In this document: in pieces, positions 5,957 to 15,918 of the stretch
Layout: every line of letters starts with the position of its first letter
How positions within the stretch are numbered: the stretch's first letter is position 1
NCBI RefSeq assembly: GCF_000025685.1
Contig: NC_013967.1
Location: forward strand, 360,001 to 392,000
Length of the DNA: 32,000 nt
Reading direction: 5' to 3'
Origin: Haloferax volcanii DS2
GTDB taxonomy: Archaea > Halobacteriota > Halobacteria > Halobacteriales > Haloferacaceae
Position numbers and translations under genes: made by a program
The notes under the pieces: model-generated
The model's input: the letters and a program-made list of their open reading frames with translations, nothing else
The model's database searches: none
What the model was told of the DNA's origin: nothing

Positions 5957-7695
5957 TTACACGCCCCAGATGAGGGCGATGCCGGCGGTCGTGACGACCG
6001 CGAGCAGGAGTTGGAGCGGCGCGCCCACGCGGAGGTAGTCGGTGAATCGGTAGCCGCCCGGCCCGTACACCATGAGGTTCGTCTGGTAGCCGATGGGCGT
6101 CATGAAGGCCGTGCTCCCGCCGAACGTGACCGCGAGCGCGAAGCCGAAGGGGTCGGCACCGAGGCCGAACGCGGTGTCGATGGCGACCGGGAGCAGGAGG
6201 ACGACGCTCGCGACCGGGGTGATGACGTTCGCTAGCAGCCCCGTGAGCAGGTAGAACGCGGCGACCACGGCGATGACGGGCAGGTAGGTCGCGGCGACGC
6301 CGACGAACTCAGAGATGAGCGCGACGCCGCCGGTCAGTTGGAGCGCCCGGCCGAGCGGGATGACGCCCGCCAGCAGGAAGATGACGTTCCAGCTCACCGC
6401 GTCGTAGGCGTCGCTCGCGGACAGACAGCCGAGCGAGACCATCGCGGCGACGCCGCCGAGCGCGGCGATGGCGATGGGGACGACGCCGAGCGCGGCCAGC
6501 CCGATGACCGCCGCGACGACGGCGAACGCCCGGAACGCCGTGGGCGACAGCCCGCCGTTGTCCTCGATGAACTCGTCTGCGACCTCGCTCGTCACGACGA
6601 AGTCGCCGCTGTCGCGGAGATACCGCGCCGGCGGACCGCGAGCACGGTCGCGTCGTACCGCTCGCGGAGTCGCGCGCCGCCGACGGTCTCGCCGACGAGG
6701 CCGGATTCTCGGGGGACGACGAGTTCGACGAGCGCCACGCGGTCGGGTCGGTCGAGTTCGGCGTCGGTGACCGACGCCCGCGGGAGAGATCGCAGGCCCG
6801 CGAGGTCGCAGAAGCGCCGAATCGTCGCCGGGTCGCCCCGGACGGTCAGGATGTCGCGGGCGGCCACCTCGCGGTCGGAGTCGGCCGCGATGAAGTGTTC
6901 GCCGCCGCGGAGCACGTCGAGGATGTCCACGTTGAGGTCGCGGTAGGTGTCGTCCGACACCTCGCCCGCGGGGATGCCGACGAGCGGCGACCGCGCGGGG
7001 ACGAGCACGCGGGCGAGAAACGGCTCGACGCCGTAGTTGCCGGTTCGGTTCCCGGGCTCGATTCGCTCGGGGAGGAGCCGCGGCGCGACCGCAAGCAGGT
7101 AGCCCGCGCCGACGACGAACACGAGCGCCCCGAGCGGCGTGAACGTGAACATCGAAAACGGCGGCAGTCCGGTGGCCTCGGCGTAGGCCTCGCTGGCGAC
7201 GAGGTTCGTCGCCGTCCCGACGAGCGTGAGCGTGCCGCCGAGCATCGAGGCGTACGAGAGGGGAATGAGGAGCTTCGACGGCGAGACGTTCGCCTGGTCC
7301 GCGAGGTCCGACACCATCGGCACGAACACCGCCACGACCGGCGTGTTGTTGACGACGCCCGCGATGGGGCCGGTGAGGCCGACGACCGCGGCGAGCAGTC
7401 GGCTCTCGCTGCCGTTCGTGAACGAGGCGACCGCGTCGCCGAGGACGCGAATCGCGCCGGTCTGTCGAACCCCCTCGCTGAGGGCGTACATCGAGAGGAT
7501 GGTAATCGTCGCGGCGCTCGAAAACCCCGACAGCCCCGTCTGGAGGCCGACTCGCGTCCACGGTTCGAGGACGACCAGCGCGACGATGACGCCGATGGCC
7601 GTCACGTCCGTCGGGGCCGCCTCCGTCACGAACAGCGCCATCGTGACGACGACGAGGGCGAAGACGACGAGCATTCCGGACGTGACGGCGACCAT
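5957..7695 (-). pseudogene. DASS/SLC13-type (ArsB/NhaD superfamily) anion transporter with two TrkA-C (RCK_C) domains, frameshifted
   Basis: The N-terminal half (7695->6592 ORF) contains TM helices and TrkA-C-like segments. The C-terminal TM half (YLRDSGDFVVTSEV...MTPIGYQTNLMVYGPGGYRFTDYL) is in another frame down to 5957. The frame switch maps to 6623-6633. Total length is 1739 nt (3n+2). Confidence 0.7.
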
Positions 7696-11249: not shown

Positions 11250-11426
11250 TCAGGCCTCCGGCACCCACCCGCAGACGGAGCAGGTCGCCGCGCCCATGTC
11301 GTGCAGGGCCCCGCAGTCGGGACACTGCAACTTGTTATAGGATCGGTCCCAGCGTGCCGGTTCTGTCTCGTGACCGCGGTCGGTCAAGAACTGGTCGAAC
11401 AAGTCGTCACTGGGTGCTGAGGCCAT
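11250..11426 (-). CDS. small zinc-ribbon protein (58 aa), HVO_0416-like; below the ORF-track length cutoff
   Basis: My translation of the minus strand gives MASAPSDDLFDQFLTDRGHETEPARWDRSYNKLQCPDCGALHDMGAATCSVCGWVPEA*. It has CPxC...CxxC. TATA-like 'ctaaata' (plus-strand 11451-11457) lies 25-31 nt upstream of the ATG. Confidence 0.7.
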   Translation of the reverse strand: MASAPSDDLFDQFLTDRGHETEPARWDRSYNKLQCPDCGALHDMGAATCSVCGWVPEA

Positions 11427-11517: not shown

Positions 11518-13026
11518 TTACAGGTCGTACAGCGCGCCGTATTTCGACTCGACGTAGTCGAGGAAGTCGTCGGCGGCGAACGCTTCGCCGGTGGCTCGCT
11601 TCACGAGGTCGTTCGTCTCGTAGCGCCGACCGTGGCGGTGGACGTTCTCCCGGAGCCACTCCCGGAGGTCGCCGAACTCGCCGTCGGCCAGTTTCCCGTC
11701 GAGGTCGTCGATGTCCTCCTCGGCGGCCGAAAACAGTTGGGCGGCCATGATGGAGCCGAGCGAGTAGGTCGGGAAGTAGCCGAAGTTCCCGTACGCCCAG
11801 TGGATGTCCTGCAGACAGCCCTCGGAATCGGTGTCCGGCCGGATGCCGAGGTACTCCTCGTACTTGTCGTTCCACGCCTCCGGCACGTCCTCGACGGCGA
11901 GGTCGCCGGCGATGAGTTCGCGTTCGAGTTCGAACCGGATGACGATGTGCAGGTGGTAGGTCAGTTCGTCCGCCTCGACGCGGATGAGGTTGTCGTCGTA
12001 CACCTGATTGGCGGCCTCGTAGGCCTCTTCGACCGTCGCGTCGACCTCCGGGAACCGGTCTTCGAGCGTGGGCAGGAAGTGCCGCCAGAAGGCCCGCGAG
12101 CGCCCGACGTGGTTCTCCCAGAGCCGCGACTGCGACTCGTGGACTGAGAGGTTGCGGTTCTCACCGAGCGGCGTCGCGTAGTGTTCGTCCGGCAGGCCGA
12201 GCGTGTACAGCGCGTGGCCGAACTCGTGGACGGTCGAGAACAGCGACCCGAGCACGTCGGACTCGTCGTAGCGGGTCGTCACGCGGGCGTCGAACTGCGT
12301 CCCCGACGAGAACGGGTGCGGGGCGGTGTCGAGGCGGCCGCGCTCCCACGGGTAGCCGAGCGTCGAGAGCGCGTCGCGGACGAGCGTCTCCTGGTCTTCC
12401 TCGGGGAACTCGCCCTCGAAGGCGTCCACCGCGAGGTCGACGTCGGACTCGCGGATGTCCTCTATCATCGGGACGAGCACCTCGCGCACCTCGGCGAGAA
12501 TCTCCTCGGCCTGTTCGAGGGGCAGACACGGCTCGTAGTCCTCGAACAGCACCTCGTAGGGGTCGCGGTCGGGGTCGATGTGCTCGGCGTACTGCCGCTT
12601 CAGTTCGACGTGCTTCTCCAGATGCGGCGCGAACGTCTCGAAGTCGTCTTCGGCCTTCGCCTGCTTCCACGCCGGGATGGCCTCCGAGGACGCCGCGGAA
12701 ATCTTCTCGACGAGGTCGTTCGGCACGCGGGCCGCCCGCTCGTAGTCGCGGCGGAGTTCGCGCAGCACGTCGGCCTGCTCGTCGGTCGGGTCGTCGGCCT
12801 CGGCCGAGTCGAGGAGTTCTCCGAACTCGTCGTCGGTCAGGAGTTCGTGGCTCAGCGCCGACAGCGCCGACATCTGCTGGGAGCGCGCGGGCGTCCCCTC
12901 GTCGGGCATCATGACCTGCTGGTCCCACGAGAGGATGCCGCCGGCGTTCTCGACGTTGGCGATTCGCTTGTACTTCTGGAGAAGCTGGTCGTACGGCGAT
13001 GCGTCTTCGGTGGGGGATTGTGCCAT
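11518..13026 (-). CDS. M32 family (Taq-type) metallocarboxypeptidase, 502 aa
   Basis: HEFGHALY (HExxH), HESQSRLWEN, IRVEADELTYHLH and DIHW motifs are typical of carboxypeptidase Taq/M32. Confidence 0.9.
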   Translation of the reverse strand: MAQSPTEDASPYDQLLQKYKRIANVENAGGILSWDQQVMMPDEGTPARSQQMSALSALSHELLTDDEFGELLDSAEADDPTDEQADVLRELRRDYERAARVPNDLVEKISAASSEAIPAWKQAKAEDDFETFAPHLEKHVELKRQYAEHIDPDRDPYEVLFEDYEPCLPLEQAEEILAEVREVLVPMIEDIRESDVDLAVDAFEGEFPEEDQETLVRDALSTLGYPWERGRLDTAPHPFSSGTQFDARVTTRYDESDVLGSLFSTVHEFGHALYTLGLPDEHYATPLGENRNLSVHESQSRLWENHVGRSRAFWRHFLPTLEDRFPEVDATVEEAYEAANQVYDDNLIRVEADELTYHLHIVIRFELERELIAGDLAVEDVPEAWNDKYEEYLGIRPDTDSEGCLQDIHWAYGNFGYFPTYSLGSIMAAQLFSAAEEDIDDLDGKLADGEFGDLREWLRENVHRHGRRYETNDLVKRATGEAFAADDFLDYVESKYGALYDL

Positions 13027-13052
13027 ATGATATCAGGTCGGTCCGGAACCGT

Positions 13053-13060
13053 AATAAAAT
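13053..13060 (-). promoter_or_regulatory. TATA box of the carboxypeptidase gene
   Basis: The minus strand reads ttttatta, 27-34 nt upstream of the ATG at 13026. Confidence 0.45.
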
Positions 13061-13220
13061 GAAGGAGATGCGAATTATAGTCCGTTGTTGTTCATTCGGG
13101 TGCTATCAGATGTGAAACCTCAAACCCATGGTGAATAGATAGTATGCCGACTTCGTTCAATCGACAGTGTCGGTTGTTGGGCTTGCTTATTCACCGTGTC
13201 GCGAGGTGAGTAACTAGACC

Positions 13221-14717
13221 TCACTGTTCGCCAACAATTTCCTCATTATGATACCGTAATAACTCGGTCGAAATATGGTGGTCTGAGTCCACGGCTAACT
13301 GTCTATCAGAGAGTGCTGAAGTGTGGGTATGTTCCAATTCAAGCGATTCTGGAGAGACACTTACGACACCATTGTCGAAGTCCGTGTGATGGTTTGGACA
13401 CAAGACTAGCATGTTTGATCTTTTGTCTGGTCCACTATGTGGCTCACCGAGAGGGACGATATGGTGAACTTCTGAGTACCGAGTACCGTCGTTCCGAAGT
13501 AACGTGGTTCCACACACCTGGCACTTATCGTCGTAGAGACGTTTCAACTCGTTGACTACCTCGCGATCGCGTCGTACTCTGTCGAGGACCGTCTGGTATC
13601 TTCCTATGTCTTCGTACAGTTCCGGTTCAACCTGTACTGGGTCGAAGTCTTCTCGTGGGAATGGGTCGGTACGTTGCCTCGTTTTGGTGTCTTCGTCTCT
13701 ATTCTCTTGCAGCAGGAGCTCGTCGCTCCAGATTTCTTCGAAGTAGGAAGGGTTGTACTCTCGTTTTCGGAAGGGCCCTCCCGTTCGGTCGCCAACGTAT
13801 AGGCAGTCACAGAGCAACTTGTAGAACCCTGTCTTCGTCGTGTGTACGTCCTCCTCGAACCGTGGGAGAATCGATTCGAGCATCAGTTCAGAGTGCTGTC
13901 TGAGGACGATAGAGTGCGGCAACAGTGTCTCGATAATCTTCCTCACATTTTGATGGGCAGTGAAATAGACCTGAAAATCGTGCCGCGTCGAGGAATTACC
14001 GTAGTCAATGCCTGTCGATTCACAATAGTCTAGTGCATAGTCGACGAGTTGTTTACTCACCCCTGTCAGATGCATTCGTGCAATTGGGTACATCGTGTAC
14101 CCAATTCGAACTTCGTCCGTTTGCGCGATGCTCGCACGGTAGCGGCAAATTCCATCAAACAAGCCAGCAAACCACTTTTCTGAATACCCAGATCGGCATC
14201 GTCCATCTGGCAGAGGAAGCGAGTCCACTCTCGACGGACGGACGTCGTACTCGTCGCTGAAGTCCTGCGGTGTGGTGTGATTCCGGCCTCTCGGACGCCA
14301 TCCATGCCGGAGTTCGTCACGCGTGATGAGCAGTTGATAGACGTCTTCGGCTGTCAACAATTGCCCACCGAACTGGTTGTCAGACAGGCTGGTCACGAAC
14401 GCTAATTCGTTGGCTAACTGCGCAGAGTGCCCGGCGAGATACTCATCAAGTTGTTGCAACTCACTATGCTGGTCAAGCAGAAAATACGATATCGAGTAGT
14501 CACCGTCGACAAATCGAGTGCTGTCGTACGATTGGCTGTCGAGAAACATACCCAGTACGTCACGGCGTGCTGTCGACTCGTAGGTCCGAATTCGGAGCGA
14601 AGGACGGACGGTGAATTTGTTGTCGGGCTGGGAGTGGATATTGAATTGTACCCTCCCAGTGGCGTCTAAGAGCCCAGCGACGTACTCCGGAGAAAGGACC
14701 TCTTCGGTTTCATTCAT
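13221..14717 (-). CDS. tandem LAGLIDADG-like domains fused to a C-terminal HNH (CCCH zinc) nuclease, 498 aa
   Basis: Motif 1 is YVAGLLDATG (aa 12-21) and motif 2 is WFAGLFDGIC (aa 182-191). HNH core: C399QVC402 ... EVH418H419IVP ... N435MLVLC440PNH443H444TDFDNG. A/T-rich codon third positions. Acidic composition, roughly 84 D+E against 53 K+R by hand count. Confidence 0.75.
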   Translation of the reverse strand: MNETEEVLSPEYVAGLLDATGRVQFNIHSQPDNKFTVRPSLRIRTYESTARRDVLGMFLDSQSYDSTRFVDGDYSISYFLLDQHSELQQLDEYLAGHSAQLANELAFVTSLSDNQFGGQLLTAEDVYQLLITRDELRHGWRPRGRNHTTPQDFSDEYDVRPSRVDSLPLPDGRCRSGYSEKWFAGLFDGICRYRASIAQTDEVRIGYTMYPIARMHLTGVSKQLVDYALDYCESTGIDYGNSSTRHDFQVYFTAHQNVRKIIETLLPHSIVLRQHSELMLESILPRFEEDVHTTKTGFYKLLCDCLYVGDRTGGPFRKREYNPSYFEEIWSDELLLQENRDEDTKTRQRTDPFPREDFDPVQVEPELYEDIGRYQTVLDRVRRDREVVNELKRLYDDKCQVCGTTLLRNDGTRYSEVHHIVPLGEPHSGPDKRSNMLVLCPNHHTDFDNGVVSVSPESLELEHTHTSALSDRQLAVDSDHHISTELLRYHNEEIVGEQ

Positions 14718-14738
14718 TTACCAGACGGTGACAGTATG

Positions 14739-14746
14739 ATTAAATG
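14739..14746 (-). promoter_or_regulatory. TATA box of the LAGLIDADG-HNH gene (leaderless spacing)
   Basis: The minus strand reads catttaat, 22-29 nt upstream of the ATG at 14717. Confidence 0.45.
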
Positions 14747-14823
14747 ATAGTTGTGGTTGAACGTCTCTGTTGACATCCTTGGAGTCGCCGCCACCGGCTA
14801 CTTACCTCTCCCCAGGCCCGAAA

Positions 14824-15918
14824 TCACCAATTTGCCACGAGCGCGCGGTACGTCTCGTAACACCGCGCCAGCACGTCGAGCGACACGCTCTCGTCTTTCG
14901 TGTGCGCCTCGCCCGGCTCCGAGGGGCCGTAGACGACGCAGGTCGTCCCGGCCTGCGCCAGCCATCCGGCGTCGGTCGCGTGGGGCTTCGTCGTCTGCTC
15001 CGGCTCCGCGTCGCTGCGGGCCTCGTGAACCGACCGGGCGGCGTCGAGGACGCGCTCGGCGAAGTCGGCGTCGTCGCACGCCATCGGCGGGAGGTCCTGT
15101 TCGACGACCCACTCGACGCCCTCGAGTTCCGCCGTCCGCGCGAGGTCAGCAAAGCCGCCGGGGACGGTCCGCTCGTCGAGAGTCACCTCGCAGCGGTCGG
15201 GGATGACGTTCCACGCGCTCCCGCCGTCGATTTCGGTGACGGCGATGCTCCCCGAGACGGGGTGGTCGAGGACCTCGGCGTCCGGCACGGAGAGACCGCG
15301 AACCACGTCCACGGCGTCGGTCGCGCGGTAGACGGCGTTCTCGCCGCGCTCGGGTCCGCTGGCGTGGCAGGCGGTCCCAGACGCGACGAGGGTGCTCGCC
15401 CGGCGGCCCCGGTGGGCGACGGCCACGTCCGTCCGGTTCGGTCCCGAGTAGTTCGTCGAGCCCTCGGCGACGACGGCGTAGTCGAGTTCGAAGCCGTCGT
15501 CGAGGGCGGCGCGGACGCCCTCCCCGCCGATTTCCTCGCCGACGAACGAGGCGAAGGCGACCTCCGAGTCGGCGTCGGCGGCCGCGTCGCGGAAGGCGAG
15601 CATCGACGCCGCGACGGCACCTTTCATGTCCGCGGCCCCGCGGCCGTAGAGGCGGCCGTCGCGGGTCTCGACCACGTAGTCGCCGCTGTCCGTGGTCTGC
15701 CGGTCGGCCGGCGGGACCACGTCGTGGTGGCCGACGAGCGCGAGCGACTCGCCGACGCCGGGGTTGACGCGGGCGACGACGTTCCCCGCGTCGTCTCTGG
15801 CCACGTCGGCGTCGGTCTCCTCGCGGAGCCACGCTTCGATGGCGTCGCCGGCGGCGGTCTCGTCCTCGTGGCTCGGCACCGACACGAGCGTCTCCGTGAG
15901 GTCGCGGAGTTCGTCCAT
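14824..15918 (-). CDS. M20 family metallopeptidase (ArgE/DapE-type deacylase), 364 aa
   Basis: [12 protein letters not shown] and GRGAADMKG motifs. Dimerisation-domain insert. C-terminal [11 protein letters not shown]. Confidence 0.85.

Follow-up and report, generated by a model that had tools for sequence, protein, structure and literature searches.

An acid-less double LAGLIDADG fold joined to a TagI-class HNH domain in a solitary gene of Haloferax volcanii DS2

The gene analyzed here is a complete open reading frame (ORF) in a 32,000-nucleotide (nt) stretch of the Haloferax volcanii DS2 genome (contig NC_013967.1, positions 360,001 to 392,000), which is referred to below as the window. It is a solitary gene, located between an M20 peptidase gene (14824-15918, minus strand) and an M32 carboxypeptidase gene (11518-13026, minus strand) and not in a PbeABCD-like cluster. 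Its product of 498 amino acids (aa) combines a predicted N-terminal double LAGLIDADG fold, which lacks the catalytic acids, with an intact C-terminal HNH nuclease domain. The best reading of this architecture is that the LAGLIDADG module directs and the HNH domain cuts, i.e., that the protein is a targeting module plus a tethered cutter. The features of the gene are given below, each with its basis in brackets.

13221-14717, minus strand: complete ORF of 498 aa with two LAGLIDADG-like domains separated by a connector, followed by a disordered linker and an HNH domain (ORF list; 25 full-length homologues with 38-98% identity; AlphaFold2 model).
14313-14693, minus strand: LAGLIDADG-like domain 1, I-CreI-like, aa 9-135 (AlphaFold2 secondary structure, I-CreI alignment, PADLOC HEase).
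14655-14681, minus strand: motif 1, VAGLLDATG, aa 13-21, with T20 at position 8 (codon ACT, 14658-14660) (sequence).
14193-14312, minus strand: inter-domain connector, aa 136-175, after a conserved R-D-E-L-R-Y-G-W-R-P-R-G stretch (family alignment; dip of the predicted local distance difference test, pLDDT, at aa 143-145).
13713-14192, minus strand: LAGLIDADG-like domain 2 of the LAGLIDADG_1 / I-OnuI / I-LtrI type, aa 176-335 (profile alignments to I-PanMI and I-LtrI, secondary structure).
14145-14171, minus strand: motif 2, FAGLFDGIC, aa 183-191, with I190 at position 8 (codon ATT, 14148-14150) (sequence).
13563-13712, minus strand: flexible linker, aa 336-385 (low pLDDT, high column entropy).
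13356-13523, minus strand: beta-beta-alpha-metal core of the HNH domain, aa 399-454, with C399-x2-C402, H418-H419, N435, C440-P-N-H443-H444 and D448-N449 (Pfam HNH_2, TagI and EcoKMcrA alignments).
13224-13355, minus strand: C-terminal extension of the HNH domain, aa 455-498, common to TagI, with H480, Y489 and H490 (TagI alignment, family alignment).

Scans against Pfam and NCBIfam left the N-terminal part of the protein unrecognised and matched the HNH part alone. An AlphaFold2 model built from 26 homologues had a mean pLDDT of 80.5, with values of about 90 across aa 9-335. The top Foldseek matches in the PDB were the monomeric LAGLIDADG enzymes I-MsoI, single-chain I-CreI, I-PanMI, I-LtrI, I-OnuI and I-SmaMI, with expectation values (E) between 4e-13, obtained for I-MsoI, and 1e-10. 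The N-terminal family profile matched solved LAGLIDADG enzymes with E of 1e-18 to 1e-12, and phmmer paired aa 12-61 with residues 12-61 of I-CreI without any gap. The initial annotation of this DNA, made from the sequence letters, had proposed a pseudo-dimeric LAGLIDADG core, and the topology of the model together with the Foldseek, profile and gapless I-CreI matches supports it. As modelled, the N-terminal part is a genuine two-domain LAGLIDADG fold.

In the AlphaFold2 model, domain 1 consists of helix 10-20, strands 21-30 and 34-44, helix 49-61, strands 68-70 and 78-81, and helix 84-94, and it is matched by the homing-endonuclease model of PADLOC (HEase, E 5e-5). The C-terminal helices of domain 2 bear the motifs ILPRFE..H.TK.GFY and Y..YFE..W, and phrog_12980 matches this domain over aa 182-334 (E 2e-28). 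The linker has a pLDDT of 25-39 over aa 337-382 and is slightly acidic, with a net charge of -4. Conservation was determined in a family alignment of 26 full-length homologues with 38-98% identity, all of them haloarchaeal, to which the statements on the family refer. The mean column entropy is about 1.3 bits in both LAGLIDADG domains, 2.21 in the linker and 0.9 in the HNH core, and comparison with the copy in H. chudinovii revealed 18 synonymous and 11 non-synonymous codon changes. The low entropy of the domains and the excess of synonymous changes indicate that the LAGLIDADG module is under constraint. The conserved arginines R22, R24, R38, R42, R192, R194 and R214 occupy beta-strand positions that face DNA in the I-CreI register, and the hypervariable positions 26, 40, 44, 208 and 216 lie interspersed among them. 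The net charge of domain 1 is -13, which is usual among haloarchaeal proteins.

In active LAGLIDADG homing endonucleases, the Asp or Glu at motif position 8, the last helical position, binds the catalytic metals. The gapless phmmer alignment pairs T20 of the window protein with D20 of I-CreI, and in profile alignments position 8 of the family stands opposite the catalytic Glu of I-PanMI and I-LtrI (E29/E184). Across the 26 sequences, position 20 is occupied by Thr (16), Ile (6) or Val (4), and position 190 is nearly free to vary (L in 7, R in 6, A in 5, I in 3, plus W, V, G, Q and C). Neither position is Asp or Glu in any member, so that the suspected absence of the catalytic acid from both motifs, now seen as T20 and I190 on the catalytic acids of all three enzymes, extends to the whole family. 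Since the same loss is found in 26 full-length homologues, it is due neither to chance nor to a sequencing error. The motif coordinates given at first were right to within one codon: the lower limits are unchanged, while an upper limit of motif 1 at 14684 takes in Y12, the motifs proper being 14655-14681 and 14145-14171.

The active sites of LAGLIDADG enzymes also contain peripheral basic or polar residues, such as Q47 and K98 in I-CreI and K42 and K120 in I-DmoI. The columns matching I-CreI Q47 and K98 are variable in the family, and the one matching I-CreI R51 is invariant. D18 and D188, at motif position 6, are invariant as well. Among remote relatives, an Asp at position 6 was found in 205 of 217 motif instances, including canonical ones with an acid at position 8. 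As this residue is kept with or without an acidic position 8, it is probably an ancestral structural residue and not a relocated catalytic one. With both metal-binding acids missing, the LAGLIDADG saddle is predicted to be incapable of cutting DNA by the canonical mechanism.

The HNH domain, which spans aa 386-498, is a member of the TagI/EcoKMcrA class. HNH_2 (PF13391) matches aa 399-454 with 41.2 bits against a cut-off of 21 (E 1.6e-10), and residues 375-494 align with TagI (6ghs) with E 4e-17 and with EcoKMcrA (6ghc) with E 2e-5. In TagI, H229 activates the nucleophile, N245 is structural, H254 and D258 are ligands of the catalytic metal, N259 lies in the dimer interface, and H288 is essential in a role that is unexplained, its mutation nearly abolishing activity (PMC6212794). 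The respective counterparts in the window protein are H419, N435, H444, D448, N449 and H480, and the zinc-site cysteines C399, C402 and C440 align with C210, C213 and C250 of TagI. All TagI residues found to be essential by mutagenesis are thus kept in the window protein and, with the exception of H419, are invariant or nearly so in the family; the same holds for H480, Y489 and H490 of the C-terminal extension. The prediction that the HNH module at aa 399-450 (nt 13368-13523) is intact was confirmed by the HNH_2 score above the cut-off and by the presence of the essential residues and the zinc cysteines. Given the acid-less LAGLIDADG motifs, this complete HNH site is the only recognisable nuclease centre of the protein, in agreement with its proposed role as the only active site. 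The initial comparison with 'megaTev'-style chimeras needs one change: the HNH domain is of the TagI/EcoKMcrA restriction class, whose members dimerise through their nuclease domains and cut at variable distances, and not a homing module of the I-HmuI or I-TevI type. TagI dimerises via its HNH domains, and its two domains are mutually mobile (PMC6212794).

Joined to other N-terminal domains, the HNH cassette occurs widely among bacteria and archaea, and the closest HNH relatives of the window protein are haloarchaeal and bacterial HNH proteins of this kind. Two of the haloarchaeal ones (P0041 and P0046) show weak SRA-domain matches below the Pfam cut-off. A hidden LAGLIDADG fold in another of these closest HNH relatives (P0029) was considered and rejected, as hhalign gave a probability of 0.1% against the family profile. 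Both NF045808, the NCBIfam model of a phosphorothioated-DNA restriction endonuclease, and mREase_IV, the PADLOC model of a Type IV methyl-directed restriction enzyme, match only the HNH part of the window protein and remain well below full-length scores. No modified-base sensor domain (SRA, PUA/EVE or sulphur-binding winged helix) was detected in the window protein by Pfam or NCBIfam.

TagI, ScoA3IV, EcoKMcrA (6ghs, 6ghc) and the haloviral HHPV4I are modular, NTP (nucleoside triphosphate)-independent, modification-dependent HNH restriction enzymes. The window protein resembles these enzymes in its C-terminal HNH_2-type beta-beta-alpha-metal domain, in which the CxxC...C zinc ligands, the catalytic His, Asn, His and Asp and the C-terminal extension are all shared, and also in having a flexible linker, a solitary gene and what would be a non-catalytic N-terminal DNA-reading domain. 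However, the readers of these enzymes are SRA, PUA/EVE, winged-helix or sulphur-binding domains, whereas that of the window protein is a double LAGLIDADG fold of about 335 aa, and nothing in the protein points to the reading of modified bases. With I-OnuI, I-LtrI, I-PanMI, I-MsoI and single-chain I-CreI it shares the C-terminal H-x-T-K-x-G-F/L helix motif of LAGLIDADG_1 and the position-6 Asp. Unlike the monomeric LAGLIDADG homing endonucleases, it has no position-8 acids, does not conserve the peripheral Lys and Gln, carries an appended HNH domain and is not encoded in an intron or intein.

A two-domain LAGLIDADG fold without acids at the helix bases, joined to a different C-terminal domain, is also found in WhiA/DUF199. 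WhiA occurs in Gram-positive bacteria with a helix-turn-helix partner, whereas the window family is archaeal and viral, has a nuclease partner and keeps the saddle arginines; neither a WhiA Pfam match nor a helix-turn-helix was found in the window protein. The combination of a LAGLIDADG address with a tethered unrelated cutter is known from engineered proteins, namely megaTev (I-TevI nuclease plus I-OnuI) and inactive I-SceI with PvuII or MutH (PMC3258161, PMC3627573). In contrast to these, the window protein is natural, its nuclease is a C-terminal HNH domain and its scaffold was inactivated by evolution. Reader-linker-HNH restriction enzymes, domesticated acid-less LAGLIDADG proteins (WhiA) and engineered chimeras with a dead LAGLIDADG part are known already. 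The searchable literature yielded no paper on a naturally occurring LAGLIDADG-HNH fusion, nor one on a LAGLIDADG component in Pbe/CxC systems.

When 1.8 billion representative proteins were searched exhaustively by phmmer with aa 1-340, 168 hits were obtained, of which the nearest are stand-alone two-domain proteins of 325-347 aa and the farther ones are one-domain proteins of about 160-185 aa. A motif was detectable in 146 homologues. No motif with a position-8 acid occurs in 91 of these, including all of the nearest ones, while the 55 canonical homologues are mostly compact two-motif proteins of 200-260 aa. Because the acid is already missing in the nearest unfused one- and two-domain relatives, its loss is older than the fusion to the HNH domain. 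This does not bear out the view of a homing endonuclease that recently handed cleavage over to an HNH domain; the module was non-catalytic before the fusion. A second, very divergent fusion of a double LAGLIDADG fold with HNH_2 was found in a metagenomic protein of 489 aa (P0080, 27% identity), which has no zinc cysteines, and in another metagenomic protein (P0081, 651 aa) the C-terminus is extended by a different sequence of about 300 aa that weakly matches a TFIIB repeat. Apparently, more than one partner has been joined to the acid-less scaffold.

One-domain acid-less members were matched in 51 records of haloarchaeal viruses, many belonging to the tailed Hafunaviridae, plus Hardygib1. Their motifs are exemplified by LAGVFDVVGSV in HCTV-6 gp71 (L097:2926-3465) and IAGVVDSLGRF in Hardygib1 (L098:3025-3510), and in these two loci the gene has the same placement near an ERCC4 nuclease gene. 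The viral one-domain proteins are annotated as 'LAGLIDADG endonuclease', and phrog_12980, the group that they form, is labelled 'HNH endonuclease'; since the catalytic acid is missing, neither label fits. A viral origin of the fused gene was also considered and was rejected, as searches of IMG/VR and GenBank phages gave only HNH-only or single-domain LAGLIDADG-like relatives.

The genomic context of seven unfused two-domain genes at six independent loci was analyzed, and all seven, at all six loci, adjoin a PbeABCD-like cluster. Their positions are as follows.

L007, 8001-9017: unfused gene.
L008, 7949-8983: unfused gene.
L099, 9971-10963: unfused gene on a Halococcus dombrowskii plasmid.
L100, 9896-10885: unfused gene on a Halobaculum rubrum plasmid.
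L101 (locus L101/L102), 6414-7433: unfused gene.
L103, 769-1767 and 7956-8936: two unfused paralogues.

The products of these genes are acid-less double LAGLIDADG proteins of about 330-345 aa. The clusters encode an SF2/ResIII helicase of about 670 aa, a small protein of about 60 aa, an AAA_23/SMC_N ABC ATPase of 656 aa and a protein of about 140 aa. The last of these matches PF27807 (DndE-like) in four metagenomic loci; the L099 protein, the only plasmid copy that was scanned, gave no Pfam match. N6/N4 methyltransferases are present in five of the six loci, and in L007 and L099 one of them is fused to HATPase_c_3. On both plasmids (L099 and L100), the unfused gene runs in the same direction as the cluster and overlaps the gene before it at the latter's stop codon. 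The genes are arranged as in PbeABCD (PMC6459918), which was later re-annotated as the CxC ABC-ATPase-DndE system (PMC10853773). The original study of PbeABCD observed no degradation of DNA, and no LAGLIDADG component is mentioned in PMC10853773. The acid-less LAGLIDADG gene looks like an undescribed component of Pbe-like systems. The initial interpretation has to be modified here too, since the unfused kin of the LAGLIDADG module are found in PbeABCD-like clusters and halovirus genomes and not in introns or inteins. In addition, a gene of 365-393 aa without a Pfam match adjoins the LAGLIDADG-like gene in L099, L100, L101/L102 and L103. The possibility that the unfused gene of L008 and the HNH_2 gene downstream of it represent a split fusion was rejected, as the HNH core is only 32% identical and the HNH_2 gene has its own N-terminal domain of 260 aa.

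The context of the fused gene, in contrast, differs by genome. In the window and in H. chudinovii it lies between the M20 and M32 peptidase genes. Haloplanus salilacus has it between an Lhr-type helicase gene and a mevalonate-pathway operon, H. marisrubri in a variable island, and Halobacterium salinarum beside parA on a 38-kilobase (kb) plasmid. In Saliphagus (L010) the neighbours of the fused gene are a gene for a C5 cytosine methyltransferase and others whose products have 'homing endonuclease associated repeat' domains; the methyltransferase gene (L010:11827-12990) is located about 340 base pairs (bp) downstream, and an upstream gene (L010:7342-9822) carries three PF18780 units. This single occurrence could be a restriction-modification-like pairing. 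A genome scan with the full-length family alignment, which mostly returned HNH-only loci, found a full-length copy in 3 of 185,579 species-representative genomes.

The surroundings of the gene in the window differ in base composition from the rest of the stretch, and the following two features were identified.

13000-14836, no strand: low-GC (guanine plus cytosine) segment of about 1.8 kb (GC profile; borders by comparison with the empty-site genomes L091, L092 and L094).
14739-14744, minus strand: TATA-like TTTAAT, 27 nt upstream of the ATG (sequence inspection).

The gene and both spacers form a low-GC block (about 13000-14836) in which most 100-nt windows have 46-56% GC; the ORF itself (13221-14717) has 51.5% and the rest of the window about 69% GC. 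The TTTAAT box may point to a leaderless haloarchaeal transcript. A transposon, intron or intein was rejected for this locus, as the low-GC segment contains neither terminal repeats of note nor an Rfam match. LAGLIDADG homing endonucleases are encoded either in a group I intron or an intein, or by free-standing genes with a cognate homing site; the window gene stands free. The site shows presence/absence polymorphism. The fused gene is missing in two Haloferax genomes (L091 and L092), whose flanks are 97.5-98.1% identical to the window, and in H. denitrificans (L094), and these three empty-site genomes instead have a GC-rich M20-M32 spacer of 328-353 bp. Homology to the window stops at 12999 on one side and at 14837 (L091/L092) or 14824 (L094) on the other, just inside the termini of both flanking genes. 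The empty-site spacers (L091:6096-6423; L094:6096-6448) are very GC-rich and contain repeated CCGCCCGCGACGA-like units and long self-complementary stretches.

The insert of H. chudinovii has 97.9% nucleotide identity to that of the window (96.5-99% per 200-nt window), compared with 94-95% for the flanking genes, and a 200-nt sliding comparison of the two sequences shows a step in identity at the borders of the insert. The gene has thus spread recently and horizontally into one and the same site. Homing predicts such a pattern, and ordinary exchange by homologous recombination among Haloferax species predicts it as well.

On the M32 side, the replaced low-GC tract covers the promoter region (13027-13220) and the first nine or so codons (12999-13026) of the carboxypeptidase gene, whose protein has 502 aa in the window and 504 aa in the empty-site genomes. 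As the tract replaces this promoter and these codons, the insertion appears to have supplied a new 5' end and a TATA-like box (CATTTTATTA) to the M32 carboxypeptidase gene. Directly downstream of the M32 gene lies a 58-aa zinc-finger gene of the Pfam family 'HVO_0416' (11250-11426, minus strand). No mention of HVO_0417 to HVO_0419 was found in the searchable literature.

We propose that residues 1-335 form a pseudo-dimeric LAGLIDADG saddle that would act as a non-catalytic DNA reader, for which the conserved arginines argue. The disordered linker of about 50 residues would tether this saddle to the TagI/EcoKMcrA-class HNH domain, which, with its complete active site and structural zinc site, would be the sole cutting centre. 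By analogy with TagI, two protomers may dimerise via their HNH domains and cut at a variable short distance from the bound site. The N-terminal module was probably recruited from a LAGLIDADG clade that was already acid-less and whose unfused members would serve PbeABCD-like clusters. Since the nearest relatives of both modules occur in defence contexts, we lean somewhat towards a stand-alone, horizontally mobile restriction or defence nuclease and not an intron or intein homing enzyme.

Several observations weigh against this proposal. The general base H419 is replaced by Tyr in 3 of the 26 homologues (P0012, P0017 and P0020, with His-Tyr for His-His), which may be inactive or use the preceding His. 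The charge of domain 1 is not obviously favourable to DNA binding. The fused gene never adjoins a Pbe-like cluster, and four of its five contexts have no methyltransferase partner, which leaves unexplained how self would be told from non-self. Furthermore, a gene lodged between conserved housekeeping genes could be a homing element just as well as a defence gene, and so could one that occupies the same site in two lineages with an insert less diverged than its flanks.

These last points lead to a rival that we regard as possible though doubtful, namely a free-standing homing endonuclease, in which the saddle reads a long site, either within the empty M20-M32 spacer or at the ends of the genes beside it, the HNH domain nicks or cuts there, and repair copies the gene into the empty allele. 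The LAGLIDADG ancestry of the module is in line with this, as are its free-standing position between housekeeping genes in the window and in Haloplanus, the empty site in Haloferax genomes with flanks 98% identical to the window, and the occupied site in H. chudinovii with its insert at 97.9% and flanks at about 95% identity. Homing would also account for the replaced tract, which ends inside the termini of both flanking genes and resembles co-conversion, and for the hypervariability of DNA-facing beta-strand positions among the homologues. However, Haloferax swap chromosomal segments by homologous recombination without an endonuclease, so that the same-site pattern is not diagnostic. Moreover, the HNH domain belongs with TagI to the restriction class and not to the homing class of phages and introns, the targeting module has its nearest unfused relatives in operons of defence clusters and not in mobile introns or inteins, and other copies of the gene reside on a plasmid and in variable islands.

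The LAGLIDADG part might also no longer bind DNA and instead be a protein-interaction or regulatory domain, which docks defence proteins or senses a viral protein while the HNH domain binds and cuts alone. WhiA, whose acid-less LAGLIDADG fold may have ceded DNA binding to another domain (PMC3384342), offers a precedent, the unfused relatives are subunits of multi-protein systems, the HNH domain of the related HHPV4I itself contributes to DNA binding (PMC10101028), and domain 1 is negatively charged. We nevertheless consider this unlikely, as the seven DNA-facing arginines are invariant or nearly so, I-CreI R51 is retained, and variable residues are interleaved with the arginines like the specificity residues of true homing enzymes. 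Residual cleavage by the LAGLIDADG core through a non-canonical site, for instance at D18 and D188, would give the protein two kinds of active centre. Both are invariant and stand two residues away from the canonical position, but helix residues two apart point in nearly opposite directions, and canonical relatives with a position-8 acid have the same Asp, which is therefore no substitute. Together with the variable equivalents of I-CreI Q47 and K98 and an entire clade that is acid-less, including viral proteins of 160 aa, this makes such a site very improbable. Least credible of all is a decaying, non-functional remnant of a mobile gene: low GC and a sporadic distribution would be expected of one, whereas the reading frame is intact and the domains are conserved in all 26 homologues down to 38% identity (38-98%), synonymous changes exceed non-synonymous ones against the nearest copy (18 versus 11), and all catalytic residues of the HNH domain are kept.

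A natural dead-meganuclease chimera kept by evolution would show which linker lengths and geometries are workable and would provide new halophilic scaffolds. With a tractable Haloferax host and strains carrying the empty site, homing and defence could be distinguished by direct experiment.

For the family as a whole, the steady placement of the unfused relatives in PbeABCD-like clusters, at loci where unfused homologues of the N-terminal module lie in or beside the cluster in six of six cases while the window gene does not (PMC6459918, PMC10853773), points to an undescribed component of those systems. We tentatively suggest, as one possibility, that acid-less LAGLIDADG proteins are an unrecognised DNA-recognition subunit of archaeal PbeABCD-like/CxC-ABC-ATPase systems, possibly reading a site or its methylation state, that the one-domain copies of haloviruses are mimics or regulators, and that the window protein is a self-contained effector made of a long-site reader and a restriction-type HNH domain, from which a new scaffold for programmable nickases or nucleases might be developed. 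After WhiA, this would be another large case in which the LAGLIDADG fold has been reused without its catalytic acids, here in conflict systems.

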